A stretch of 64,000 nt of DNA, taken from the sequence record PZ019085.1. One strand, written 5' to 3'. Below, piece by piece: positions 4,647 to 35,212 of this stretch. How positions within the stretch are numbered: position 1 is the first letter of the stretch; every line of letters starts with the position of its first letter. The notes below the pieces were generated by a model. The model ran no database searches. It was given only the letters and a program-made list of their open reading frames with translations, and was not told the origin of the DNA. Origin of the DNA: a phage. The translations under genes were made by a program, and so were the position numbers.

Positions 4647-5282
4647 ATGAAAACTACACCAATCACTATCGCTATTGACGCAATCGTAAAACAAGCTTCA
4701 TCTCTTGCCACTATGGCTAAAGTAATTAGTCAAAACCCTGCCCGATATAATGCTATTCTTGAAACTCTTCGTCGCCCTGGACTGAGTAATTATGAAAGCC
4801 GAGTAATTATTACAGGTGTTGGTAAGAATGCTAATATTGCAACTAAAGCTTCTGAGACATTTGCTTCATTAGGTATTCCTAGCATGTATTTGAACACTGG
4901 GCATTATTCTCATGGTGACGCAGGATTTATTGCACCTAATGATGTATTAGTTCACATCAGTCGTTCTGGTAAGACTGAAGAAATGATAGGTGTTGCTAAA
5001 CATCTTCGTATGATTCGTCCTCAGGTTAAACAGATTCTGTTACATTGTAACCCTGACATTCCACAAGAATACGAAGCTCTTTTTGATTATACGTTCTGTA
5101 CCGGTATCGCGGTAGAAGTTGACGAGAACTCTTTAGCTCCGACGATGTCTACTACATTGTTGTTAGCGCTTATCGATACGTTCGCTATCAACCTTTCATC
5201 TGAACGTGGATTTACCTCTAATGATTTCCTTAAGTTCCATCCAGGCGGTGCACTAGGTGCCATGTTACGAGGCGAGCAATGA
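4647..5282 (+). CDS. SIS-domain sugar-phosphate isomerase (arabinose-5-phosphate isomerase / KdsD-GutQ-like, single SIS domain, no CBS)
   Basis: 211 aa; motif VIITGVGKNANIATKASETFASLGIPSMYL...HGDAGFIAPNDVLVHISRSGKTEE typical of SIS isomerases; no T4 counterpart at this position. Confidence 0.7.
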   Translation: MKTTPITIAIDAIVKQASSLATMAKVISQNPARYNAILETLRRPGLSNYESRVIITGVGKNANIATKASETFASLGIPSMYLNTGHYSHGDAGFIAPNDVLVHISRSGKTEEMIGVAKHLRMIRPQVKQILLHCNPDIPQEYEALFDYTFCTGIAVEVDENSLAPTMSTTLLLALIDTFAINLSSERGFTSNDFLKFHPGGALGAMLRGEQ

Positions 5283-5422
5283 AAGCAATAACAATAGGAC
5301 TTTTACTATTGATGCTTGTCATGACTATCTATTGGAGCTTAACGGCTCCAGTAATGATTCCAACACTTGTAATTGGATGGATTATGATTGGACTACAAGC
5401 AAAGTATGAATGCTTTAACTAG
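5279..5422 (+). CDS. Small hydrophobic membrane peptide (47 aa)
   Basis: ATG overlaps the preceding stop (ATGA); MKAITIGLLLLMLVMTIYWSLTAPVMIPTLVIGWIMIGLQ; below the ORF-track length cutoff. Confidence 0.4.
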   Translation: MKAITIGLLLLMLVMTIYWSLTAPVMIPTLVIGWIMIGLQAKYECFN

Positions 5423-5435
5423 AATAGTGTACAAT
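5411..5435 (+). promoter_or_regulatory. MotA-box middle promoter (TGCTTTA, 12-bp spacer, TACAAT) upstream of the nucleotidyltransferase/kinase gene
   Basis: MotA box TGCTTTA at 5411-5417 and -10 TACAAT at 5430-5435; spacing fits T4 middle promoters. Confidence 0.45.
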
Positions 5436-5463
5436 ACTCCTACTTACCAATGAGGACCACAAC

Positions 5464-7149
5464 ATGAAAAAAGCTGTTATTCTTGGTGCTGGACTGGCAA
5501 CTCGTTTGTATCCAATAACGCATCATATTCCTAAGGTGCTTGTTAACTATAAACAAGACACTATTCTGAGCAATTTGTATACAATTTATTCTGACCTTGG
5601 CGCAGATGAAATTATTGTAGTAGTTCATTCAAAATTTGCTGAAACTGTTCGAGCTTATTGTGAGCAAGAAGGGTTCAATGTGACTATTCGTACAGTTGAT
5701 GAAGCATACGGATCTGCTTATGCTCTTGCTAAATTACACAAAGATTTAGACGGCCATAATGTAATTGTTAACTGGTGCGATATTATTCCTGATTTTGGTT
5801 CATGGTCTTGGAATGTTAACGCAATCTATGTTAAGGGTGACGAATGTCGGTATAATTTCGACGGTGAAAATATCACTAACGTAGGTTCAACAGGTGGTAA
5901 TGTTGTAGGAATTTATCAGTTCAAAGACTGGGAATTCTATATGGGTTCTACCGATGAGGAAATTCATGAATACTGCAAAGGACGTGATTTCGTAGAATTC
6001 CTTTACAGCGGCGCATTCAATAAATCAGAGCTTATGAATATAATTGATTTAGGTGATATGCCTAAACTTGAAAAAGCTCATGAAGTTCGTGAACTTAATC
6101 GTAGTTTTAATGCAGTTGAAATTGGTGAAGAAACTGTAACTAAATTCGCATTAACCGAACAGGGCCGAGCTCTTCAGAAAGATGAGATTTCATGGTATCT
6201 TAAAGTGAAATCAGATTCAGTTCCTCAGTTAGTTTCTGTTAATGAAAATAACTTTGAAATGGAACGCATTAAAGGTAAGCCGGCATTTGAATATATTAAA
6301 TCCAAATCAAGTCTTGCTCGTCCACAAATTGTTGATGCAATTTTAGATGCACTGAAATTCAGCACAGACACTTATTTTGTAAGTCCTGAAACTGTTCGTC
6401 GTGATTTCACTAAAGAATTCTATACGAAAGTTATTGATCGTTGTGAAAGTATTCAACCATTGATTGATTCATTTGGTAAAATCACACATGTGAACTACAC
6501 TAAGATTGGACGTCTGAAGCCAATGCTGAAACAAGCTTTAGAACACCTTATTCGTTATCATAACCGTTCTCAGGGACAGTACTCTGTTATTCATGGTGAC
6601 CCTAACTTCAGTAATACTATGATTACTGATAACGGCGAAGTCAAGTTTATCGACCCTCGTGGATATTTTGGTGAAACCAAGATTTACGGGCCAAAATTGT
6701 ATGACGAAGCTAAAGTGCTTTATGCTGTTTCAGGTTATGATGAATTCAATGCTAATCCGACCTGGGGACAGTTTACTATTGATGAAACAACTTGTAATGT
6801 GACTATTAACATCAATCCATTAATTTACAAATATGGAAAGATGAGTTCGTTTAACGAGTATCATCATTTGGCGGTGGCAATTATCTGGATTGCATTGGGT
6901 GGTTATTTCAAGAATAATCCACTTAAAGCGGTAGCCGCATATTATAAAGGTATGGAACTTCTGACTAAGCAATTACGTAACATGGGCCGTGTACTTCAGG
7001 ACGGCTCTATTAGTTATGACGTAGCAGAACCTGTAACGGCTACTCTGATTACAAAAAATCCTGGTAAATGGGTACTAACTGATAAAGAAACTGGTGTTTC
7101 TTATCGTCCAATCGGTGGCGATATCACTCATCAATGGGAACGAATCTAA
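5464..7149 (+). CDS. Bifunctional sugar-1-phosphate nucleotidyltransferase (N-terminal) / APH-choline-kinase-fold kinase (C-terminal)
   Basis: N-terminus MKKAVILGAGLATRLYPIT is the RmlA/LicC-type G-x-G-x-R-L signature; C-terminus has Brenner motif HGDPNFSN and IDPRG (APH/NahK/LicA-like); 561 aa. Confidence 0.75.
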   Translation: MKKAVILGAGLATRLYPITHHIPKVLVNYKQDTILSNLYTIYSDLGADEIIVVVHSKFAETVRAYCEQEGFNVTIRTVDEAYGSAYALAKLHKDLDGHNVIVNWCDIIPDFGSWSWNVNAIYVKGDECRYNFDGENITNVGSTGGNVVGIYQFKDWEFYMGSTDEEIHEYCKGRDFVEFLYSGAFNKSELMNIIDLGDMPKLEKAHEVRELNRSFNAVEIGEETVTKFALTEQGRALQKDEISWYLKVKSDSVPQLVSVNENNFEMERIKGKPAFEYIKSKSSLARPQIVDAILDALKFSTDTYFVSPETVRRDFTKEFYTKVIDRCESIQPLIDSFGKITHVNYTKIGRLKPMLKQALEHLIRYHNRSQGQYSVIHGDPNFSNTMITDNGEVKFIDPRGYFGETKIYGPKLYDEAKVLYAVSGYDEFNANPTWGQFTIDETTCNVTININPLIYKYGKMSSFNEYHHLAVAIIWIALGGYFKNNPLKAVAAYYKGMELLTKQLRNMGRVLQDGSISYDVAEPVTATLITKNPGKWVLTDKETGVSYRPIGGDITHQWERI

Positions 7150-7535
7150 TGCATCGTGTAGAAAACATGCTTAATCTTTGTTTTGATGTCGACGATTGTA
7201 TAACAGAGTGGAATAACAATCGTGATTACGTGAACTTCAAGCCAGACGTCGAAATGGTGTCTGCCATTAATGCCCTGTATGATGCAGGGCATACCATAAC
7301 GCTTTACACTGCTCGTGGTATGAAGTCAGTAGGTCCTGGTCGTATAGCAATTGACATTCTCCCAAGTCTGATTCAGAACTTGGCAAACATTGGCTTGAAG
7401 TACCATAATTTGCTAACACATAAACCAGTATATGATTGGATTATCGACGACAAAGCTATGCGTCCCGACGAATTCAAAGCTCTTATGAATAAAGGCGAAT
7501 TCGAAACATTTAAATCATATAAACCGAATCTATAA
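7149..7535 (+). CDS. Small HAD-superfamily phosphatase-like protein
   Basis: Motif I FDVDDCIT near the N-terminus, motif IV IIDDK; start taken at the ATG overlapping the upstream stop (TAATG); track ORF starts at 7134. Confidence 0.5.
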   Translation: MHRVENMLNLCFDVDDCITEWNNNRDYVNFKPDVEMVSAINALYDAGHTITLYTARGMKSVGPGRIAIDILPSLIQNLANIGLKYHNLLTHKPVYDWIIDDKAMRPDEFKALMNKGEFETFKSYKPNL

Positions 7536-7589
7536 TAATTTAAGTAAGACCTGCAAAAACCATCGCATAAATTAACGCGAGATGCAAAA

Positions 7590-8750
7590 ATGAATACTTT
7601 TAAAATCGGAACGAATTTTGATTTAGCTCTTCTTGATAAAATCGTAGAGCTCAATAAAACTTATCCTAATAGCTTGATAAACGAAGTATACGGCTCTACA
7701 AGAGAAATGGCTTTTGTAGCAGCCAGACCTGATTTTAGGCTTCCTGACGTTGACAAAAAGATGTTAGAAGATTACGTTAAACGTTGTAATGAATTAGGTA
7801 TTTGCTTTAACTATACACTCAACACGATAAATCCCGGTTCAAAAAGAGAACTAGTTGAGTGGAAGAAGAAAGCTATTCAGGATTATGTTCAGTATCTTTG
7901 GTCAATAGGCGTATGGCGTATTACTATCGCTAACCCTGTTGTTATGGAAATTGTTCGTGAAGTCAATAAAGACATTGAGATTGAAGTTTCAACAATTCTA
8001 CATGTCGATGCTGTAACTCAAATCAAATACTTACATGACCAATACAATATCAAAAAGGTCTGCTGTGGAATTCATAAGAACCGTTCAGTTTCTTTCCTGA
8101 AGCGTGCAGCAGAGTTTTGCAATAAGAACAATATAATATTTGAAGTTCTTGTAAATGAGTTCTGTTCTAATGCTGGTAAAGGGTATACAACACATTGTAG
8201 CTATCGTGACTCTTGCTATATTTTCCATAGTACTGATGTTACAGCTGATGATGCTAAATCCTTAAACGGGTATCCAATGCAACACTGCATTAAAGCTCGT
8301 GATACAGACCCATTTAACTGGTTGAGAACTCGTTTTGTTCGTCCTCAAGATTTGAAACTTTATAATGATATTGGTATCACTCAATTCAAAGTTTCAGGAC
8401 GTACAGGTAGCACAGACTACATTTTGAAAGTTCTTGAAGCATACGCTTCTGAAAAGTTTGAAGGTAATTTGTTAGAACTGTGGAAGCCTTTAGAGACTAT
8501 TTTCACTCTTGAAAACGAAACTGAGTTTTCACATACAGTAAATATTGAAACCTCTTTGTTAGATGGCTTTTTAGAAAAAAGGTGGTTCAGGCATCCAGAT
8601 TTCGATTGTGCTAATGAAATCTGTGGGACGACGTGTACATATTGTGAAAGATATTATAAACGTCAGTTATCTAAAAACGGGTTAGCAGAAAACTCTATAT
8701 CTATTATTGATATAACTAACTCTGATGACGCTTTGAGGTACCCAGAATGA
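7590..8750 (+). CDS. Cys-rich enzyme, possibly peptidase-U32-family / Fe-S TIM-barrel-like; function unknown
   Basis: 386 aa; segments GICFNYTLNTIN and EIEVSTILHV resemble U32-family strands as I remember them; C-terminal Cys cluster C-x4-C-x3-C-x2-C (CANEICGTTCTYC). Confidence 0.3.
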   Translation: MNTFKIGTNFDLALLDKIVELNKTYPNSLINEVYGSTREMAFVAARPDFRLPDVDKKMLEDYVKRCNELGICFNYTLNTINPGSKRELVEWKKKAIQDYVQYLWSIGVWRITIANPVVMEIVREVNKDIEIEVSTILHVDAVTQIKYLHDQYNIKKVCCGIHKNRSVSFLKRAAEFCNKNNIIFEVLVNEFCSNAGKGYTTHCSYRDSCYIFHSTDVTADDAKSLNGYPMQHCIKARDTDPFNWLRTRFVRPQDLKLYNDIGITQFKVSGRTGSTDYILKVLEAYASEKFEGNLLELWKPLETIFTLENETEFSHTVNIETSLLDGFLEKRWFRHPDFDCANEICGTTCTYCERYYKRQLSKNGLAENSISIIDITNSDDALRYPE

Positions 8751-8829
8751 TTTCTAGAAAAACTTTTAACCACCAACTTAATGAAGAGATTTTGACTATG
8801 AAACTGAACACTAACGAACAAATTCTTAA

Positions 8830-8850
8830 AAAGGCCCTTATGGGGGCCTG
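8830..8850 (+). other. GC-rich stem-loop (AGGCCC-loop-GGGCCT) in the 280-nt non-coding gap before gene 42
   Basis: Inverted repeat seen directly; no U-tract follows, so terminator function is uncertain. Confidence 0.3.
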
Positions 8851-9030
8851 TTTGAAACCAAAGCGGCTAAAGTGATTAAAGAACCTGTTCAATTGGAATA
8901 CTACGCTGATGCATTTCTTCATAGTGTTCTTGGAAGTATCGATGCTGAAGCTTTACGGTATATCAACACTGCCAAGAAATTCAAATAAGCTTTACGAATC
9001 GAGTATATAATAAATTGTATTGAGGTAAAC

Positions 9031-9747
9031 ATGGGAAAACATAACACAATGAAATATATCAAAGCCGCAGATTTTCAAACCGCATTTAAAGCAGTCAATC
9101 GTGAAATTTTAGAAAACCCGGAATTCGTAACTGATTCTCGTATTGGACGTTGTAATGAAATTGGGTCTATGACAGTAGTTGTTGACACTCCATCGTCATT
9201 CAAAATGACCGACCCACGTATTAACCGCATCTCTTATGAATATGCCGAAGACTTCTGGAAGTTTATGATTTCTGGTGGTACTGATGCAGAAGAAGCGTTT
9301 AAGGCATATCCTAATGTCGCTAAATTTATTTCTAAACCAAAATCGGATGCTTTGCCTGCAAACTTCAACACTTTCTATGGTCCTCGCATTGCGGCCCAAT
9401 TACCAACTCTTCTAAAAGAACTTAAAGAGAAACCTAACTCTCGAAGAGTTGTGTTCCAAATTCTAGAAAGTTCAGATCAGGCTTTGCTTGATTCGGACGA
9501 AACACTTGAATATCCATGTACTGACTCAGTGACTTATTATATTCGTGATGGTAAGCTTTATACCCACTGTCATATGCGTTCTCAGAACTGTGCTGTTGTT
9601 ATGCAGTTGGATTTTTATCTCCAAGGAAAATTACTTCATTATATCGCTAACGAATGCGGTGTAGAAGTAGGTGATTATACTCATACCATGGTAAGTGCCC
9701 ATGTGTTTGAACGTGATTTTGATTATGTTAAAGGATTCCTTGACTAA
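9031..9747 (+). CDS. 42: dCMP hydroxymethylase gp42 (thymidylate-synthase fold)
   Basis: 238 aa; NSRRVVFQIL and CTDSVTYYIRDGKLYTHCHMRSQN align with T4 gp42 DSRRGIMIYT and CTNTVQYLIRDKKINAVVNMRSND from memory. Confidence 0.85.
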   Translation: MGKHNTMKYIKAADFQTAFKAVNREILENPEFVTDSRIGRCNEIGSMTVVVDTPSSFKMTDPRINRISYEYAEDFWKFMISGGTDAEEAFKAYPNVAKFISKPKSDALPANFNTFYGPRIAAQLPTLLKELKEKPNSRRVVFQILESSDQALLDSDETLEYPCTDSVTYYIRDGKLYTHCHMRSQNCAVVMQLDFYLQGKLLHYIANECGVEVGDYTHTMVSAHVFERDFDYVKGFLD

Positions 9748-10646
9748 TGGCTATTTTCCGCGTACCTATCTTGAGTATGCGGTCTTATGAAACTGGTCAG
9801 TATGCTATCCTTAAGGATGGCAACTTCCAACTTCATTTGCACCGTGCTAATCCAGGCGATGTGATTACATATCCACGTAATGCATCTGATATTAAAGAAT
9901 GTGAACGTCTTTTCCCGGAATTTAAGTTTGTTCCATTATGGTATAAAGATAACGCGTATAACACTCGTAAATATTTCTGGTCTGAAAATGAATTTGTGGT
10001 TGATTCATTAATTGCTTATTATGATTGTGATTTTCTAATCACAGATATCACTGGATATGATGGCGCTTTTGACGTAGAATTCAATTTCAATATCACTGCA
10101 GACCCTAATAAACCACGTTTTTATATTGATGAATTCTTAAAAACCGACATGTTGTCTGTTAATCGTTCACTTCAAACTACTGTGTTGAATGAACGTCAAA
10201 AAGAAGTGCTGGTTAACGCAGGTGCAGATGGTAATAAGATTATCGTAACGCAGAAAGTTATACGTCCTTCCGTCATGCAGCGTCTTGTAGGTGATTTGGC
10301 TCCTATTCATCTAGATGGTATTTTTCATCCATTTCGAATTAGTGACCCATGCTATCGTTTTGAACAAGTTGTTGAATGCGCAATTCAATTAGGTCAACCG
10401 CTTTATATAACTGATCCAAATAATAGTTTCGACAGAAATAAGTATCCTGAAGAAGCGCTGATTCGAATTTTTAATCCAACTAAAACTGAGTACTATCAAA
10501 TTCTTAAAGGACGTCCGAAGATTCAATATTTCGAAAATCCTGAAGAAGTATTCCATCCAGGTCTTGGTGAGTTCATCTACTTTAATGCTTTAATTTCTTC
10601 ACCGTATAATATACCTAAATACGAAGATGTCGTAATCGAGGAATAA
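9747..10646 (+). CDS. Hypothetical protein occupying the T4 beta-glucosyltransferase slot (no recognisable beta-gt similarity)
   Basis: 299 aa; sits between 42 and uvsX where T4 has beta-gt; sequence does not resemble T4 beta-gt as I recall it. Confidence 0.5.
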   Translation: MAIFRVPILSMRSYETGQYAILKDGNFQLHLHRANPGDVITYPRNASDIKECERLFPEFKFVPLWYKDNAYNTRKYFWSENEFVVDSLIAYYDCDFLITDITGYDGAFDVEFNFNITADPNKPRFYIDEFLKTDMLSVNRSLQTTVLNERQKEVLVNAGADGNKIIVTQKVIRPSVMQRLVGDLAPIHLDGIFHPFRISDPCYRFEQVVECAIQLGQPLYITDPNNSFDRNKYPEEALIRIFNPTKTEYYQILKGRPKIQYFENPEEVFHPGLGEFIYFNALISSPYNIPKYEDVVIEE

Positions 10647-10647
10647 A

Positions 10648-11196
10648 ATGGCTAAAATTATTTTAGTAGACGGCCCGGATAATGCTGGTAAAACAACTTT
10701 CATTAATGACATAATGGAAATTAGTGAAAGATATGTAAAGATTGATTTCCCTAAACGAACAGTTGATGGACGTTTCGATGTTAAGTCTCGAAATGAAGTT
10801 GGCTGTTTCGAAACGATGTTGAATTATTTAGACCCTACTAAGATTTATCTGTTAGACCGTGGATATATTAGTAACTGGGTTTATGGACGTATTCGACAAG
10901 ATGTGGACTCGGTTCTTGACGTTTATGAACAGGATTATGTTCGTCTTTGCCAAAACCATGATGTGTTCACAATTATTTTAACACGTAACGAAATGACTGA
11001 AAGTTTTGAAGACGACCTTATTACTTTGTCTTCATTCGGTTTTAATACAGTCATTTCATATTTTGAAGAGTTTGCAATTCATAACAAAATCCAAACGTAT
11101 CAATTACTTAATCATGATGGTGCTAACAAAGTTATAGGATTTAATGCAAGCGAACGTAATTATTTGATTACAGAAATCATTAAATGGGCTCGTTAA
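10648..11196 (+). CDS. P-loop nucleoside/nucleotide kinase-like protein
   Basis: 182 aa; Walker A GPDNAGKTT at the N-terminus and an LDRG motif reminiscent of dNK/TMPK-type kinases. Confidence 0.5.
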   Translation: MAKIILVDGPDNAGKTTFINDIMEISERYVKIDFPKRTVDGRFDVKSRNEVGCFETMLNYLDPTKIYLLDRGYISNWVYGRIRQDVDSVLDVYEQDYVRLCQNHDVFTIILTRNEMTESFEDDLITLSSFGFNTVISYFEEFAIHNKIQTYQLLNHDGANKVIGFNASERNYLITEIIKWAR

Positions 11197-14342: not shown

Positions 14343-14717
14343 ATGAATATGTCTCAAGCAATTTTTACTGCAATCACCGAAAACACAACTGTTGAAGTAG
14401 TTTCTCCGCTGGCAACCTACGTTATTCTTGCTCCTAAAACTATTGTATCTCGTATGGAAAACACGGGCAAACGTATTGTACAAATTGTTGGAGCTGGAAA
14501 TCAAAAACTTGATTATCTGCGAACTATCAAAGCTTACGAACATTTCCAAATCGAAAAAGGTTCTCCTATCCAGGTAGAACTCGTAAATGGTGATATCGTT
14601 CGAGCAATGTTCCATCATTTCTATGCATTGAATGACCAATCTAAAGCGGTTCGTTTAATTGCATACGACGCAAACCAAAACGAAATCAACGCAGACGTAT
14701 CTAAATTACGTTTTTAA
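14343..14717 (+). CDS. Hypothetical protein (124 aa)
   Basis: ORF with upstream SD AGAGGAA and its own promoter. Confidence 0.6.
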   Translation: MNMSQAIFTAITENTTVEVVSPLATYVILAPKTIVSRMENTGKRIVQIVGAGNQKLDYLRTIKAYEHFQIEKGSPIQVELVNGDIVRAMFHHFYALNDQSKAVRLIAYDANQNEINADVSKLRF

Positions 14718-14768
14718 GTTTACTTCTCCAGTAGTTGTGTTATTATAGACCTATCAACTACTGGAGAA
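14718..14768 (+). promoter_or_regulatory. Early promoter (GTTTAC, 17 bp, TATTAT) embedded in a 14-bp perfect inverted repeat that includes the SD
   Basis: Left arm TTCTCCAGTAGTTG 14724-14737, right arm CAACTACTGGAGAA 14755-14768; the -10 lies in the loop. Confidence 0.6.
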
Positions 14769-27339: not shown

Positions 27340-27759
27340 ATGAATATTGCAAATCTCTCTATTGGTGATTATGTACACGTATCAGATGCTTCTCGCTCTA
27401 AAGTTGCTGGTAAGTTGGTCGAAGTTCTTTCTGTGAGTGATCCGGTTTTTGGACGTAACGAAGTTAAAGTTCGTGACGCTGATGGTAACATTGGTTACGT
27501 TAAAAGCCAATTCATCGAGCCAGAAGAACGCGCGTTCAAATGGAAACTGTGCAGATCGGTTTTAGTTGTAAAAGACCACGAGTTCACCATTGCTGCGGCA
27601 ACAGATGGAACACCGTGGACAACGAATCAAGTTGCTGGTTTTATTTCGGACCAATGGGTAGAAGATGGTGTTAAGCTTTATAACATCGTTTTCGCTGGAC
27701 AGTTCATAGTAGTTCCTGAGTTCCAAATCAAAAAATATTGTCCAGCATCTTTTGCATAA
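27340..27759 (+). CDS. Hypothetical protein, paralog 3 of the tandem triplet
   Basis: GFISDQWVEDGVKLYNIVFAGQFIVVP; N-terminal SRSKVAGKLVEV shared with paralog 2. Confidence 0.65.
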   Translation: MNIANLSIGDYVHVSDASRSKVAGKLVEVLSVSDPVFGRNEVKVRDADGNIGYVKSQFIEPEERAFKWKLCRSVLVVKDHEFTIAAATDGTPWTTNQVAGFISDQWVEDGVKLYNIVFAGQFIVVPEFQIKKYCPASFA

Positions 27760-27763
27760 AGTT

Positions 27764-27815
27764 GTTTACTTCTCCTCTGGTTTTGATATTATACCCATAT
27801 CAACCAGAGGAGAAT
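27764..27815 (+). promoter_or_regulatory. Early promoter (GTTTAC, 17 bp, TATTAT) inside an 11-bp perfect inverted repeat that includes the SD
   Basis: Left arm TTCTCCTCTGG 27770-27780, right arm CCAGAGGAGAA 27805-27815. Confidence 0.6.
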
Positions 27816-29732: not shown

Positions 29733-31550
29733 ATGATTAAAAATGAAATTAAGGTATTGTCAGATGTAGAACATATTAAGAAACGTAGTGGTATGTATAT
29801 TGGTTCTTCGGCCAAAGAAGCACATGAGCGTTTTTTGTTCGGTAAATATCAACAAGTTGAATATGTTCCTGGTCTGGTTAAATTAATCGATGAGATTATT
29901 GACAACTCGGTTGATGAAGCTATTCGTACATCATTTAAGTTTGCAAATAAAATTGATGTGCAAATTAAAAATAATCAAGTTTCGGTGGAAGATAACGGAC
30001 GTGGTATTCCTCAAGGTTTAGTTACCGACCAAACAGGTGAACAAATTCCTGGGCCTGTAGCAGCCTGGACTATTCCAAAGGCCGGTGGTAACTTTGGTGA
30101 TGACTCTGAACGCAAGACCGGTGGTATGAACGGCGTCGGGAGTAGTTTAACCAATATCTTCTCTACGTTGTTTACAGGCATTACGTCAGATGGCGAAAAT
30201 GAAATCACTGTTAACTGTTCAAATGGAATGGAAAACAAATCATGGTCTTCTAAGAAATCTAAAGGTAAAGGCACTAAAGTAATCTTCACTCCTGATTTCA
30301 CTTCATTTGAAGAGCATAATTTATCTCAAATTTATTTAGATATTACTTTAGACCGACTTCAAACATTGGCAGTCGTTTATCCTGATATCAAGTTCACATT
30401 TAATGGTAAAAAGGTTGATGGTAATTTTAAACGATTTGCTAAACAATTTGGTGAAGATAACATCATTCAAGAAAATGATAAAGTCTCTATAGCATTCACA
30501 ACATCACCAGATGGCTTCCGTCATTTAACTTATGTGAATAACATCCATACTAAAAACGGCGGTCATCATGTTGAATGTGTAATGGATGATATCTGCGAAC
30601 ATCTTTTGCCTGGTATCAAAAAGAAATATAAGGGTATTGAAGTCACTAAAGCTCGTGTTAAAGAATGCCTCACAATGTTGATGTTTATTAGAGACATGAG
30701 CAACATGCGTTTTGATTCTCAGACTAAAGAACGTTTAACGTCAACGTACGGTGATATTCGTAATCATATCCAATTAGATGCTAAGAAAATTGCTCAGGCA
30801 CTTCTTAAAAACGAAGCCTTGATTATGCCTATTGTTGAAGCAGCATTAGCTCGTAAATTGGCGGCAGAAAAGGCTGCAGAAACTAAAGCGGCTAAAAAGG
30901 CAACTAAAGCTAAGGTTCATAAGCATATTAAAGCTAACCAATGTGGTAAAGATGCAGATACGACATTGTTCTTAACAGAAGGTGATTCGGCAATTGGTTA
31001 TCTCATTGATGTTCGTGACCGTGAACTACATGGTGGATTCCCATTACGTGGTAAGGTGATGAATAGCTGGGGTATGTCATATGCTGATATGATGAAGAAC
31101 AAAGAGCTCTTTGATATCTGTGCTATCACAGGTCTTATTCTTGGTGAAAAGGCAGAGAATACGAACTATCGTAATATTGCAATTATGACCGATGCCGATC
31201 ATGACGGTCTTGGAAGTATCTATCCGGCTTTGCTTGCTTTCTTTAGTAATTGGCCTGAATTGTTTGAACAAGGACGTATTCGCTTTGTTAAAACGCCTGT
31301 AATTATTGCACAAATTGGCAAAACTCAAAAATGGTTTTATACTGTAGCTGAGTATGAAGAAGTTAAAGATACACTGCCTAAGCATAGTATTCGATACATC
31401 AAGGGATTAGGCTCCCTTGAAAAGTCAGAATATCGTGAAATGATTCAGAACCCTGTGTACGACGTAGTTAAACTTCCTGAAAATTGGAAAGAACTCTTTG
31501 AAATGTTGATGGGTGACGATTCAGAACTTCGTAAAGAATGGATGTCCTAA
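29733..31550 (+). CDS. 39: Topoisomerase II large subunit gp39 (GyrB-like ATPase), continuous 39+60-equivalent ORF
   Basis: 605 aa; GHKL ATPase motifs; one uninterrupted ORF, unlike the split T4 39/60 arrangement. Confidence 0.9.
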   Translation: MIKNEIKVLSDVEHIKKRSGMYIGSSAKEAHERFLFGKYQQVEYVPGLVKLIDEIIDNSVDEAIRTSFKFANKIDVQIKNNQVSVEDNGRGIPQGLVTDQTGEQIPGPVAAWTIPKAGGNFGDDSERKTGGMNGVGSSLTNIFSTLFTGITSDGENEITVNCSNGMENKSWSSKKSKGKGTKVIFTPDFTSFEEHNLSQIYLDITLDRLQTLAVVYPDIKFTFNGKKVDGNFKRFAKQFGEDNIIQENDKVSIAFTTSPDGFRHLTYVNNIHTKNGGHHVECVMDDICEHLLPGIKKKYKGIEVTKARVKECLTMLMFIRDMSNMRFDSQTKERLTSTYGDIRNHIQLDAKKIAQALLKNEALIMPIVEAALARKLAAEKAAETKAAKKATKAKVHKHIKANQCGKDADTTLFLTEGDSAIGYLIDVRDRELHGGFPLRGKVMNSWGMSYADMMKNKELFDICAITGLILGEKAENTNYRNIAIMTDADHDGLGSIYPALLAFFSNWPELFEQGRIRFVKTPVIIAQIGKTQKWFYTVAEYEEVKDTLPKHSIRYIKGLGSLEKSEYREMIQNPVYDVVKLPENWKELFEMLMGDDSELRKEWMS

Positions 31551-31575
31551 GCTCCTTCGGGAGCTTCATTTTAAT
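31550..31575 (+). terminator. Intrinsic terminator (GCUCC-UUCG-GGAGC plus U-rich tail)
   Basis: Stem-loop directly after the gp39 stop. Confidence 0.55.
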
Positions 31576-31592
31576 TTTAATAAGGCTTAATT

Positions 31593-32693
31593 ATGAAAGT
31601 TATGTTTATCCCATCTCGTGCAGTCCCATTTAATCCTGACCGTGTACAAGGTGGTCTTGAGGCAGTACATTTAAATGTGTTGAAATATCTTGTGTCCATC
31701 GGTGCTGATATTGATTATATCGGCTTTGATAATGACACGTTTGGTGACTGGAAAGTTACACACCATCCTGTTGGTCATCTGACTAAATTCAGTCTAGGTA
31801 TGAGTTATACTATGGCCCGTAAGATTGTTGAACTAGCCGGCATCCATGAATACGATTTTGTTGTTACTATGGAACCGACTAAACTAACCGTTCAGGCAAT
31901 TAAAGACGCAGGTCTCTCTAAAGTTCATAAGAATTTTATGGCTACGCCGTTTGAACCGGTGTCTCGTGGTATTGTTCAAATTTGGGATCAGACTATCCAG
32001 ATTCACAAGAACGGTGGGAAGAGCTATGCTCCTACTAAAGCATTCCGTGAATTTGAACGTAAATATTGTCATATGACTTCAGCTCTTACTGACAAAATTG
32101 ATTATGACTACTGGCGTGAAAATCCATTATTTGAACCTGATGACTACCCAGTTATTTGTTTGAATGAAAAACCTGAAGTTCTTCCGGCAACTGATTTGAT
32201 TATTAGTGCTCAACGTTATGACACTAAGATGCGTCGCACTGATGTTGCTCTTGAAGCAATTAAAGCACTAGGCGAAAATGGTATTGGTTATTGTCCAAGC
32301 AAATGGGCACCACCAGCTAAATATCCTGTTATTATTGATGCTCCACATAGTGAAATCATGGAACGTCTTAAAACAGCTAAAGCACTTATTAATACGTGTC
32401 CTGACACAGGTACGGTAGAGAATAGTTCTATTGAAGCCATCTCTAAAGGTGTCCCTGTAATCCAGTTAGTTTTTAAGGATTATCCTCATGCGACATTCGA
32501 ATACGACCCAGATACTGTGCGTGTAGAAATTGATTCCTCTACTCCTAAGAAAGAAGTAGTTGCGCTTTACACAAAAGCTGTATTAGAATTCACTGACACA
32601 TACGAAGCTCGAGTTAAACGTGCTGAAGCAGTATGGAAGAAGTATAATCGAGATGCAGTTGTTGCGATGTGGGATAAAATCTTCACAGCGTAA
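31593..32693 (+). CDS. GT-B-fold glycosyltransferase (GT4-like), candidate DNA hmC glycosyl (arabinosyl) transferase
   Basis: 366 aa; C-terminal TGTVENSSIEAISKGVPVI resembles the GT-B donor-binding E-x7-E region; sits between 39 and rIIA. Confidence 0.6.
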   Translation: MKVMFIPSRAVPFNPDRVQGGLEAVHLNVLKYLVSIGADIDYIGFDNDTFGDWKVTHHPVGHLTKFSLGMSYTMARKIVELAGIHEYDFVVTMEPTKLTVQAIKDAGLSKVHKNFMATPFEPVSRGIVQIWDQTIQIHKNGGKSYAPTKAFREFERKYCHMTSALTDKIDYDYWRENPLFEPDDYPVICLNEKPEVLPATDLIISAQRYDTKMRRTDVALEAIKALGENGIGYCPSKWAPPAKYPVIIDAPHSEIMERLKTAKALINTCPDTGTVENSSIEAISKGVPVIQLVFKDYPHATFEYDPDTVRVEIDSSTPKKEVVALYTKAVLEFTDTYEARVKRAEAVWKKYNRDAVVAMWDKIFTA

Positions 32694-32709
32694 ATCCTGA
32701 ATAGCCTGA

Positions 32710-32760
32710 GGCACTATTACACATAAGATGATAAATTATACGGTCTTTAGTAATAGTGCC
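32710..32760 (+). repeat. 11-bp perfect inverted repeat GGCACTATTAC ... GTAATAGTGCC with a 29-nt AT-rich loop
   Basis: Seen directly between the glycosyltransferase gene and the rIIA.1-position ORF. Confidence 0.6.
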
Positions 32761-32785
32761 CTAGGAATCTACTGAAGAGAATATT

Positions 32786-32986
32786 ATGAGAACGTATAAC
32801 GTGGACTTGGAACTTTTTGATAAAGCGGTGCTCCGAGAATTCCGGCTTATCCAAAGATTTTTTGATATCGAATCAGCTGAAGCCTTTAAAGAACGCTTTA
32901 AGGAAATTCGATATAAAATACAAACCGATACAGCTACTAAAGAAGAACTTCTTGAAGTAGCAGAAATTTTTAAACGTAACTTGTGA
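32786..32986 (+). CDS. Hypothetical protein (66 aa), rIIA.1 position
   Basis: ORF upstream of rIIA. Confidence 0.5.
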   Translation: MRTYNVDLELFDKAVLREFRLIQRFFDIESAEAFKERFKEIRYKIQTDTATKEELLEVAEIFKRNL

Positions 32987-32998
32987 TGAGAGAAAAAT

Positions 32999-35212
32999 AT
33001 GATTATTGAAACGGCTAAAGAAACGATTATTGGTTCAGGCGGTAAGAGCACAGCATTCACTATTCAAGGCAATAGCAAAGTTTATAAGATTTTGTCTAAC
33101 GACCTTTATACAAACAAAGAATTGGCTTGTGTACGTGAATTAATCACAAACTGTATCGATGGACAAATTCTTAATGGTTGCACTGATAAGTTTATTGTTC
33201 AGGCTCCAGGTCGTTTAGACCCACGTTTTGTAGTTCGAGACTTTGGTCCTGGTATGAGTGATTTCACCATTCGAGGTAATGACGAAGAGCCAGGAATCTA
33301 TAACTCATATTTTGCTTCAACTAAAACATCGAGTAACGATTTCATTGGTGGTTTCGGTCTCGGCTCTAAAGCTCCACTAGCATATACCGATACGTTTAAC
33401 CTTACGTCTTATCACAACGGTGAAGTTCGTGGTTACGTAATCTACCAAGATGACAGTGGTCCACAGATTAAGCCAACCTTTGTAGATAAGATGGGCCCTG
33501 ATGACCGTACAGGTGTTGAAGTAGTTGTACCGGTTAACCCAGAAGATTTTGAAAAGTTCGCATCTGAAATTGCATATGTTATGCGTCCTCTAGGTGATAT
33601 TGCAGAAGTTCGTGGTGTTAAAGATATTAAATACTTTCCTGAATTTGACGATGTATATTTAGCCAAGGAAGCTCCATGGGGTGAACGTGGTAATATCATG
33701 GCTGTTTATGGTGGTATTGTATATCCAATCGGAAGTGTTATTAAAGAACAAACATGGATGATGACGCGATGCACTACAGCTTATATTAAATTCCCTATGG
33801 GTGAACTAGATGTAGCCCCGTCTCGTGAAGCATTGTCATTTGATAAACGTACAGTAGCAAATATCCATAAACGTGTTGCAGAAATCGATGCTAAATTGTT
33901 CGCTGAAGATTCTAAGAAATGGATTGATTGTAAATACCCACGTCATGTATTCCGTGAAATAGATTCTCTTGGCTATACCGCTCGTAAATACATGGAAAAG
34001 GCCGGGTCTAATATTGAATCACTGAAATACTCTAAAGAACAACTAACTTATTCTGAGTTGTACAAACGTTTTAAAATGGGACCCGAATGGTGTAATCTTG
34101 GCGTCGTATACGATATCGTTGAATCCCCTCGTCTTCGTCGTATTCGTGAAAGTGGTAGCTCATCAACAACCATTTCAATTAACAGCCTGATCGGCATTAA
34201 CATTAAAAACGTTGAAATTGTTATTGACGACGTTAAGGGACGCGTTCCATTAATGCGAGCTCTTAATTCGATTGAAATGTCTAAAGACGAGGTTAAATTA
34301 ACCGGTAAAGTTCCACGCGGTTTTGGTAAAAGCGTACTATTCGTTGACCCTACAGACGAAGATGCAATGAAACTTCTTGAACGTCTTAAAGTTATCTTTG
34401 ATGGCGACAACATTAACATGTACAAGACTTCAGAGCTTTTACAAATCGTTAAGCCATGGATTGAAGTCAGGAAACGGACTAATGAGCCTCGCCCTAAATC
34501 ACCGAGTGCCCATCGTTTCTTCAAGAACGAAAACGATGTTTGGGTATCGGAAGATCTCTTTATTCCAGCGAGTGAAGCTGATGAAATCCAAGGTTATGCT
34601 ATAGTTCGTAATCGTTCTAATGCTGAATGTCTTGACGCAGATAAAGGTTGGTTGAACTATGACTCCAATTTCTTGACCCGTATTGCTGATTTGTCAGGTA
34701 TTAAAGAGTTCACTGTAGTTCGCCCACAAATTGCTAAGAAAGTTCGTAAACTTGGTGAAGTAGAATGTTTGTTTGAAAAATCAATTAATGACTATATTAT
34801 GCTAATCGATAAAGTAGATTATGATGAGTATGTATCACCAAGTCGTAGAGCACAGCCTTATTTGAATCATATTACTCGTAATGAAGAGCTTAACTTCCTT
34901 AGTAAGTATTTTAGCTCTAAGAACAAAGAAATCAGTAAAGACTTTGCAAAACTCTCAACAGTAAATAATCGCTGGGGATGGAATCGATTCGCAGGTGCTG
35001 ATAACAGAGACCTTAACAGGAAGTTAGAATTGTGTGCTAAAATTTTCGATAAGCTTAAAGATAATGCTTACGATAATGATGATAAAATGGTTATTGAATT
35101 TGAAACCAATTATCATATTGTGTCAGAATACATGGGACGACGTGGTACTCTTTCCAAAGAACAGGTCGCTCAAATCGTTAAATTCATGAAGGCCGTGGAA
35201 GCGGCCAAATAA
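32999..35212 (+). CDS. rIIA: rIIA membrane-associated protein (GHKL ATPase-like N-terminus)
   Basis: 737 aa; N-terminal ELITNCIDG ... DFGPGM ATPase-like motifs; precedes rIIB. Confidence 0.9.
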   Translation: MIIETAKETIIGSGGKSTAFTIQGNSKVYKILSNDLYTNKELACVRELITNCIDGQILNGCTDKFIVQAPGRLDPRFVVRDFGPGMSDFTIRGNDEEPGIYNSYFASTKTSSNDFIGGFGLGSKAPLAYTDTFNLTSYHNGEVRGYVIYQDDSGPQIKPTFVDKMGPDDRTGVEVVVPVNPEDFEKFASEIAYVMRPLGDIAEVRGVKDIKYFPEFDDVYLAKEAPWGERGNIMAVYGGIVYPIGSVIKEQTWMMTRCTTAYIKFPMGELDVAPSREALSFDKRTVANIHKRVAEIDAKLFAEDSKKWIDCKYPRHVFREIDSLGYTARKYMEKAGSNIESLKYSKEQLTYSELYKRFKMGPEWCNLGVVYDIVESPRLRRIRESGSSSTTISINSLIGINIKNVEIVIDDVKGRVPLMRALNSIEMSKDEVKLTGKVPRGFGKSVLFVDPTDEDAMKLLERLKVIFDGDNINMYKTSELLQIVKPWIEVRKRTNEPRPKSPSAHRFFKNENDVWVSEDLFIPASEADEIQGYAIVRNRSNAECLDADKGWLNYDSNFLTRIADLSGIKEFTVVRPQIAKKVRKLGEVECLFEKSINDYIMLIDKVDYDEYVSPSRRAQPYLNHITRNEELNFLSKYFSSKNKEISKDFAKLSTVNNRWGWNRFAGADNRDLNRKLELCAKIFDKLKDNAYDNDDKMVIEFETNYHIVSEYMGRRGTLSKEQVAQIVKFMKAVEAAK

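Follow-up and report, generated by a model that had tools for sequence, protein, structure and literature searches.

The gene at 31593..32693 (plus strand) of this phage DNA encodes a 366-residue glycosyltransferase of the GT-B fold, which we propose is the second, chain-extending DNA arabinosyltransferase; this assignment, rather than one to the first step, is probable though not certain. The gene lies in a stretch of 64,000 nucleotides (sequence record PZ019085.1, called the window here), which also carries a sugar cassette and a second protein with a GT-B-like fold. We favor chain extension over base attachment because of the distribution of the two candidate transferases, their gene neighborhoods, the biochemistry of homologues, and published genetics. 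The gene itself is already known, having been proposed in 2018, annotated in 2021, crystallized by 2025, and assigned to the second step in 2025-2026.

The gene, its neighbors, and its flanking hairpins

By megablast the window belongs to a Mosigvirus (RB69-like), with 98.5% identity to PTK and AlbertHofmann/Bas47 over 31000..33500, an interval of which 148 records cover at least 80%. The gene begins at an ATG preceded by the Shine-Dalgarno sequence AAGG. Its upstream neighbor encodes a fused gp39/60 topoisomerase large subunit (29733..31550), and a 92-nt spacer separates its stop codon from rIIA.1 (32786..32986; 66 amino acids, 71% identity with T4 rIIA.1), after which come rIIA (32999..35212) and rIIB. 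T4 has the order 39, mobA, 60.1, 60, rIIA.1, rIIA; relative to it, the window has an extra gene inserted after the topoisomerase gene ends and before rIIA.1. A preliminary description of this DNA had placed a GT-B glycosyltransferase between gp39 and rIIA, and the open reading frame was confirmed. It is not a chance reading frame, since PHROG 8302 ("unknown function") matches the product at residues 1-366 of 366 (E 1e-221) and tblastn finds the family in 212 records of the phage collection. The best protein match, from phage PTK, is 100% identical.

The orthologue in RB69, ORF003c/gp3 (NP_861693), is also 366 amino acids long, sits at the same position (gene 39 to rIIA.1), and has the same flanking hairpins. 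It is the RB69 arabinosyltransferase candidate with which a comparison had been proposed, and the identity is 98% (PMC6024577). RB69 ORF003c, the other Mosigvirus orthologues, and the gene described here do not differ in substance; they are one gene seen in different isolates. The earlier suggestion of an arabinose DNA modification pathway is supported. The counterpart in Bas47 (bas47_0105) shows the same synteny and is annotated as a "putative hmC-arabinosyltransferase."

Two hairpins flank the gene. Between the gp39 stop and the transferase start lies a terminator-like, G+C-rich hairpin followed by a T-run (31549..31566, plus strand; 7 pairs, tetraloop TTCG, tail CATTTTAATT), the sole terminator-like site found in 31200..33100. 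The spacer between the transferase stop and rIIA.1 holds an inverted repeat (32705..32765, plus strand) with 16-nt arms that are 88% complementary and a 29-nt loop; its exact 11-bp arms (32710-32720 and 32750-32760) had been suggested to mark a module boundary. The repeat exists, but it is position alone that points to a boundary. Its predicted RNA fold has an energy of -24.7 kcal/mol (z -3.2), and no T-run was found after it. Per 64-kb window, 8 perfect 11-mer inverted-repeat matches were observed, this locus being one, versus about 1.5 (sd 1.6) in first-order Markov simulations; by count, the repeat is not beyond chance and is statistically unremarkable. No covariation was found in it among Mosigvirus sequences, whose identity is about 98%. 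Its conservation is that of overall near-identity only, and in RB69 one arm bears a substitution that the other does not compensate. A small hairpin of a different kind and a TATAAT-like hexamer occupy the equivalent place in T4. A role as boundary or regulator is conceivable but finds no support in these results.

Fold and donor site

In the AlphaFold (AF2) model (pLDDT 90.8), the 366-residue protein adopts a GT-B fold, with two Rossmann-like alpha/beta domains that enclose the catalytic cleft. Foldseek aligned this model at TM 0.95-0.97 with 9IR0 ("phage HY126 glycosyltransferase with UDP") and 9IQZ. Both entries were released on 2025-07-16 and represent the UDP complex and the apo form, respectively, of the HY126 enzyme, which is 99% identical over its full length and differs at about five residues, such as E176A, P182A, D183E, I230V, and S315F (window residue first). 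Modeling, together with the deposition of this orthologue as a UDP complex, supports the description of the enzyme as a UDP-dependent GT-B transferase. No signal peptide or membrane segment is evident in the model, which is an all-soluble, two-domain protein.

Classification by sequence gave a different picture from classification by fold. The preliminary description had pointed to a GT4-like donor-binding signature and proposed a profile search against glycosyltransferase families. Pfam returned zero families, even at E<=10 (Glycos_transf_1 PF00534 and Glyco_trans_4 included), NCBIfam returned zero matches, and PDB sequence searches with either the single sequence or an 11-member family profile recovered the orthologue alone and no glycosyltransferase family. 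Because profile classification failed, the "GT4-like" label rests on fold only, and membership in CAZy family GT4 is not supported.

The motif itself, however, is real. Residues 272-290 (TGTVENSSIEAISKGVPVI; codons 32406..32462, plus strand) are the family's most conserved block, and within it G273, T274, E276, S279, E281, A282, and G286 are invariant. In the model this block lies in the C-terminal Rossmann domain and folds as a loop, a helix, and a strand; the secondary structure there runs from a strand at 264-267 through a helix at 277-284 to a strand at 289-294. From the GT-B fold and the UDP complex of the orthologue (9IR0), we infer that this is where the nucleotide would bind. Further invariant residues are G20/G21, R208, and R214, and the two arginines lie with E276 and E281 in the C-terminal half. 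These invariant positions come from a family alignment from which the DLP1 sequences were left out. Read by eye, they suggest a Gly-loop (G20/G21), basic residues (R208/R214), and a Glu-helix (E276/E281) for the donor.

The closest structural relatives are bacterial retaining GT-B enzymes of the GT4/GT5 type, including sucrose-phosphate synthase (6KIH), BshA (6N1X/3MBO), BGluT (5ZER), PimA (2GEJ), MshA (3C4Q), and WaaG, at 10-15% identity. The E-x7-E motif of GT4 enzymes does not appear to be kept as such here. In a comparison made by eye against the GT4 consensus, the second Glu is present as the invariant E281 (in ...IEAISKG...), G273 occupies the position 8 residues before it, and E276 is the invariant acid closest to it, which gives E-x4-E. 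Of the two T4 DNA glucosyltransferases, AGT (1Y6F/1XV5; GT72) and BGT (GT63), neither has detectable sequence similarity to the protein, and in the structural ranking AGT came 35th and BGT fell outside the top 60. The earlier statement that T4 alpha-gt and beta-gt are absent from the window held up, as the best tblastn match had an E of 0.065 (chance level), and the window is without the T4 alpha-gt slot (genes 47-55). The T4 enzymes act on a flipped-out base and glucosylate its hydroxymethyl group, whereas the 31593..32693 product probably extends a sugar.

Acceptor base, sugar cassette, and a second GT-B protein

The acceptor had been taken to be hmC, and this part of the preliminary description has to be replaced. 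The modified base is 5-hydroxycytosine (5hoC), as follows from the window's thymidylate synthase (ThyA) homologue, a 5-hydroxy-dCMP synthase (9031..9747, plus strand; Pfam Thymidylat_synt), which has the substitutions D169N, N177D, and L143E (E. coli numbering), and from the chemistry of Mosigvirus DNA (PMC13326640, PMC13390438). The three substitutions are the signature of 5-hydroxy-dCMP synthases, and D169N is diagnostic; T4 gp42 keeps D169. The protein is nearly the same as the HY126 enzyme of PDB entries 9IQC/9IR2, and its RB69 orthologue was shown to make 5-hydroxy-dCMP (PMC13326640), with agreement for Mosigvirus NP (PMC13390438). In the DNA of RB69 and other Mosigviruses, arabinose is ether linked to 5-hydroxycytosine (PMC13326640, PMC13390438), and the RB69 nucleoside is beta-D-Araf-(1,3)-alpha-D-Araf-5-hydroxy-2'-deoxycytidine (Lee et al. 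2026, PMC13326640).

Upstream of the ThyA homologue lies the donor-synthesis part of the cassette (4647..8750, plus strand), assigned to UDP-arabinofuranose supply by Pfam, NCBIfam, and the roles of the HY126/RB69 orthologues (PMC13326640, section 27). All on the plus strand, it encodes a KpsF-like arabinose-5-phosphate isomerase (4647..5282), a bifunctional nucleotidyltransferase/kinase (5464..7149), a HAD-type phosphatase (7134..7535), and a U32-family protein (7590..8750). A thymidylate-kinase-like small protein with weak dTMP-kinase matches (10648..11196, plus strand) closes the cassette. The cassette (4647..11196) and 31593..32693 occupy one window about 20-27 kb apart, in rough agreement with the earlier description of the transferase as unlinked from the sugar genes by about 23 kb.

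The T4 beta-gt slot, between the gene-42 homologue and uvsX, does not hold unrelated genes, as had been thought, but the gene for a 299-residue protein with a GT-B-like fold (9747..10646, plus strand). This protein is the homologue of RB69 gp46:47, DLP3 gp79, and Thanatos TH1_063 and has been proposed as the initiating arabinosyltransferase (PMC13326640). Searches of Pfam, NCBIfam, and PDB sequences gave no match for it; its AF2 model (pLDDT 93.5) matched UDP-GlcNAc 2-epimerases, MshA, and other GT-B proteins, including 9IR0, in Foldseek. As this second GT-B protein, now considered initiating, fills the beta-gt slot, the 31593..32693 product is most likely the chain-extending enzyme.

A separate observation concerns the U32 protein of the cassette, which falls in a family of oxygen-independent, prephenate-dependent hydroxylases. 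Chorismate mutase makes prephenate, and type II chorismate mutase gene matches occur in 48 records; in KLB31 its exact place is between the U32 gene and that of the ThyA homologue, and features listed under other matches indicate the same location. Acinetobacter species are strict aerobes, and among Acinetobacter phage records none match the U32 protein and 57 match the cassette glycosyltransferase. Across 222 phage records from many genera, the identity of the U32 protein is 80% or higher. Relatives of this protein include RlhA, which makes 5-hydroxycytidine in rRNA, TrhP, and UbiU/V (PMC5727448, PMC6599085, PMC10990095). Our literature search found no published link from these U32 and chorismate mutase facts to phage 5-hydroxycytosine, though He et al. 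2026 and Mahler et al. 2025 may draw it.

Assignment of the arabinosylation step

We propose the following sequence of events. Deoxycytidine would be replaced by 5-hydroxy-deoxycytidine, made at the dCMP level by the ThyA homologue (9031..9747), while the cassette (4647..8750) would make UDP-D-arabinofuranose. The cassette GT-B protein (9747..10646) most likely adds the first, alpha-linked arabinofuranose on the 5-hydroxyl, and the 31593..32693 enzyme, a putatively soluble, UDP-sugar-dependent GT-B protein acting on phage DNA after replication, would then transfer a second arabinofuranose from UDP-Araf onto the first sugar to give di-arabinosyl-5-hydroxycytosine. In RB69 the second linkage is reported to be beta-1,3 (PMC13326640). 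The bulkier glycan may widen the protection of phage DNA against host nucleases and defense systems.

The distribution of the two transferases fits this order. Among the 212 records with the 31593..32693 family, Mosigviruses have one copy per genome and Acinetobacter T4-like phages two, with one additional record labeled Tegunavirus. The cassette glycosyltransferase, by comparison, was found in 349 records, which include Klebsiella, Serratia, Yersinia, Enterobacter, Proteus, and Edwardsiella phages, Dhakavirus JS98, and Shewanella Thanatos phages; these additional groups are absent among the 212, and the cassette enzyme likewise occurs in the main carriers of the 31593..32693 family, Mosigvirus and Acinetobacter phages. 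The preliminary description had named 31593..32693 as the best candidate for base attachment, a position it loses to a second GT-B protein that is more widespread (349 versus 212) and is the only one in Thanatos, where no copy of the 366-residue family was found and the cassette protein was the one GT-B-like protein found, in agreement with PMC13326640. A 378-residue Thanatos protein at the position of the Acinetobacter copies, TH1_065, was considered as a hidden family member and rejected; the hhalign probability was 0.1%, and it is a U32-family protein.

In groups with reported chemistry, copy number of the 366-residue family goes hand in hand with how many sugars are added beyond the first (0, 1, or 2). 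Thanatos, with the cassette GT-B protein only, has one pentose on its DNA (PMC13326640); Mosigvirus DNA carries one and two arabinoses (PMC13326640, PMC13390438, PMC12923530); and in the Acinetobacter phage DLP3 the number is three (PMC13326640). There are reports of phages in which up to three arabinoses are linked, and Maestro is named among arabinosylated phages (PMC13390438). Two family copies are present in Maestro, and two in DLP1, a relative of DLP3.

Biochemistry of homologues points the same way. The DLP3 proteins gp76 and gp77 (DLP1 ADLP1_074/075; Acj61 p076/p077) belong to the same family, with 41-44% identity over the full length and the same invariant residues. Purified and combined with UDP-Araf, gp76 plus gp77 added a further arabinose to mono- and di-arabinosylated RB69 DNA, but the pair was inactive on plain 5hoC-DNA, which no single glycosyltransferase modified (PMC13326640, section 26). 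Within the family, this extension has been shown for that pair only. The base-attaching role suggested earlier is also at odds with the literature, which ascribes addition of the second arabinose to 31593..32693, as a proposal for the Mosigvirus enzyme (PMC13326640, Table 1 and section 26; PMC13390438): RB69p003 is listed there as "beta-arabinosyltransferase 2" (PMC13326640, Table 1), and the two transferases of Mosigviruses are believed to work one after the other (PMC13390438). As for genetics, a Bas46 mutant without the arabinosyltransferase Aat is viable yet sensitized to a defense system, as cited in PMC13216743, which fits an accessory step; by contrast, inactivation of the donor-synthesis gene in Thanatos nearly abolished propagation (PMC12838424). 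The Aat of Mahler et al. 2025 probably corresponds to the 31593..32693 gene and its family.

The main competing explanation is that 31593..32693 encodes the initiating transferase, placing the first arabinose on the modified cytosine, and that the 299-residue cassette protein works elsewhere, for example in sugar-nucleotide metabolism. The original HHpred-based assignment of RB69 ORF003c (Thomas et al. 2018, PMC6024577) and the BASEL annotation "putative hmC-arabinosyltransferase" both take this position. It also draws strength from two findings that count against our model: DLP3 gp79, the presumed initiator, was inactive alone on 5hoC-DNA (PMC13326640), and TH1_063, its Thanatos counterpart, has been described as a UDP-xylose pyrophosphorylase and did not glycosylate plasmid DNA (PMC12838424). 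We nevertheless consider it unlikely. Whole groups of phages with the cassette, Thanatos and the Serratia phages among them, are absent from the matches to the 31593..32693 family, yet DNA of Thanatos and of Serratia LC53/92A1 is arabinosylated or pentosylated (PMC13326640). Moreover, family copy number follows the count of extra sugars, family members extend arabinosylated DNA while being inactive on 5hoC-DNA (PMC13326640), and the ThyA homologue signature shows that the base is not the hmC of that annotation.

Other observations sit less easily with chain extension by a single enzyme. DLP3 needs both paralogues together (PMC13326640), and Mosigviruses have one copy. Almost all of the nearest structural neighbors are retaining enzymes, yet the reported second linkage is beta. 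One alternative is that the 31593..32693 product has little activity by itself and works only in a complex, with the cassette GT-B protein or with itself, and that a two-enzyme machine installs both arabinoses. DLP3 gp76 and gp77 are active together only and inactive singly (PMC13326640, section 26), and the Mosigvirus protein is co-orthologous to both. In a neighbor-joining tree, the Mosigvirus copy is the outgroup to the two Acinetobacter paralogues and the orthologue of neither; orthology to DLP3 gp77 specifically was rejected, and the Acinetobacter pair is a lineage-specific duplication. Against a complex stand the roughly 21 kb between 31593..32693 and the cassette glycosyltransferase gene, as well as divergent family members that occupy unrelated genome slots without a nearby partner, and we regard this arrangement as quite improbable.

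Gene neighborhoods are in line with chain extension and bear on the acceptor as well. In DLP3 the two homologues are tandem paralogues directly after the cassette, both needed together, and make the third sugar (PMC13326640), unlike the single Mosigvirus gene about 21 kb away. In DLP1 the homologues ADLP1_074/075 directly follow the kinase-like gene that closes the cassette. The 31593..32693 product might instead glycosylate something other than DNA, such as a host envelope glycan, lipid, or protein, with its conservation in arabinosylating phages being incidental; its closest folds are bacterial enzymes that act on lipids, LPS, small molecules, and glycans, and its own gene is unlinked from the cassette. 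That is hard to reconcile with the homologues in Acinetobacter phages, which adjoin the cassette and whose activity on DNA has been shown in vitro (PMC13326640). Besides the one Tegunavirus-labeled record, the family was found only in Mosigvirus and Acinetobacter phages, both with reported poly-arabinosylated DNA, and the modeled protein shows no evident signal peptide or membrane segment. We give a non-DNA acceptor very little credence.

Judged by sequence searches, the 366-residue family is small and phage restricted. A word-indexed homologue search yielded 5 clusters, and an exhaustive HMMER scan of 1.84 billion representatives yielded about 10; covariation and deep evolutionary analysis were ruled out because the family is too small and too uniform. 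Its members sit between 39 and rIIA.1, next to the cassette in Acinetobacter phages, and, on metagenomic contigs, near dsbA/ligase or among structural genes. Three divergent members (P0008, P0009, and P0010) lie on contigs that are short or unrelated to the cassette and are uninformative on function. As a more speculative idea, to which we give less than even weight, the family may be a portable chain-extension module that, unlike the classical T4 DNA glucosyltransferases, recognizes the sugar in the major groove without base flipping and forms a beta-linkage on a retaining-type scaffold. Shifting from one hyperplastic slot of T4-like genomes to another, such a module would turn mono- into poly-arabinosylation and so allow escape from defenses that recognize a single sugar.

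The beta-alpha-glucosyltransferase of T2/T6, which makes gentiobiosyl-hmC, offers a functional analogy only, being a second transferase that extends a sugar on modified cytosine in DNA. That enzyme uses glucose, works on an hmC base, and belongs to a different protein family. T2 ba-gt is listed in Table 1 of PMC6024577.

Our analysis revises the picture with which we began: the base is 5hoC, two transferases are present, and 31593..32693 most likely encodes the second. Arabinosylated 5-hydroxycytosine was resolved only recently; this hypermodification of phage DNA stops many restriction enzymes and reportedly gives protection from some CRISPR-Cas systems, and the number of sugars changes which host defenses still work. 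Assigning each enzyme to its sugar matters for phage engineering, for sequencing, and for the choice of therapeutic phages.

The cassette glycosyltransferase and the ThyA homologue

Within the UDP-arabinofuranose cassette, the slot that holds beta-gt in T4 is filled by a 299-aa homologue of RB69 gp46:47 (9747..10646, + strand). This cassette glycosyltransferase was without any sequence-family match; its structural model is confident (pLDDT 93.5) and GT-B-like. The protein is the probable initiating arabinosyltransferase. It is far more widespread and diverse than the studied transferase, the RB69 ORF003c-type GT-B protein proposed as a second DNA arabinosyltransferase. For one homologue, TH1_063 of Shewanella phage Thanatos (L005:4995-5897 on the comparison locus), the published activity is that of a UDP-xylose pyrophosphorylase, and plasmid DNA was not glycosylated by it (PMC12838424). 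Those findings conflict with its glycosyltransferase-type fold and with the proposed role as initiating transferase.

The cassette also encodes a thymidylate-synthase (ThyA) homologue (9031..9747, + strand) that is near-identical to PDB 9IQC/9IR2. Its D169N, N177D, and L143E substitutions (E. coli numbering) are the signature of 5-hydroxy-dCMP synthases, as opposed to dCMP hydroxymethylases of the T4 type.

Placement of the studied transferase family and inverted repeats in the window

The Dhakavirus JS98 has the cassette glycosyltransferase without any member of the studied family; between its gene 39 and rIIA.1, the position of the Mosigvirus transferase, lie about 590 bp with no annotated gene (L004:2437-3024). 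The six Yersinia phage records that match the cassette glycosyltransferase are absent from the studied-family matches in the phage collection. One record there has an organism name beginning 'Tegunavirus' and matches the studied family at less than 60% identity. Divergent members (36-39% identity) lie on T4-like metagenomic contigs (L006:3040-4224 and L008:8001-9140), one of them after dsbA and a DNA ligase gene and another in a structural-gene region, flanked by a DPBB-domain gene and by large structural ORFs. Such different positions suggest that this gene may move between plastic slots of T4-like genomes.

Besides the repeat downstream of the studied transferase, the 64-kb window has only two other perfect, short-loop inverted repeats of at least 11 bp. 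These are 14 bp (14724..14768, + strand, just after an ORF end at 14717) and 13 bp (27770..27814, + strand, just after an ORF end at 27759). Both start with TTCTCC and may represent one shared type of hairpin, placed at transcript ends or serving RNA stability.

The U32 protein and its neighboring slot

A Peptidase_U32-family protein is encoded in the cassette at 7590..8750 (+ strand). In the window, the slot between its gene and the ThyA homologue is occupied by a homologue of RB69 ORF049c (8747..8988, + strand), which is intact in phage ATK47 (79 aa). Here a G-run near 8841-8845 carries a 2-bp (GG) insertion that splits the gene into two ORFs of 42 and 38 aa. The HY126 copy has two different 1-bp insertions. 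The cause is either decay of the gene or sequencing error in homopolymers. In other genera this slot is filled by a chorismate mutase, an unrelated protein.

Chorismate mutase makes prephenate, and a type-II enzyme was matched in 48 phage records. In Klebsiella phage KLB31 (L011:4983-6394) its gene is directly flanked by the U32 gene on one side and the ThyA homologue on the other, and the features listed for the remaining matches point to this slot as well. At 80% identity or more, the U32 protein occurs in 222 phage records from many genera; it has no matches among Acinetobacter phage records in the collection, 57 of which match the cassette glycosyltransferase. The Peptidase_U32 family includes the O2-independent, prephenate-dependent hydroxylases RlhA, which produces ho5C in rRNA, TrhP, and UbiU/V (PMC5727448, PMC6599085, PMC10990095). 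We found no published account of an anaerobic route to 5-hydroxycytosine of this kind in the readable literature. Family membership, phage distribution, and the placement of chorismate mutase together suggest that the U32 protein and chorismate mutase may provide one.
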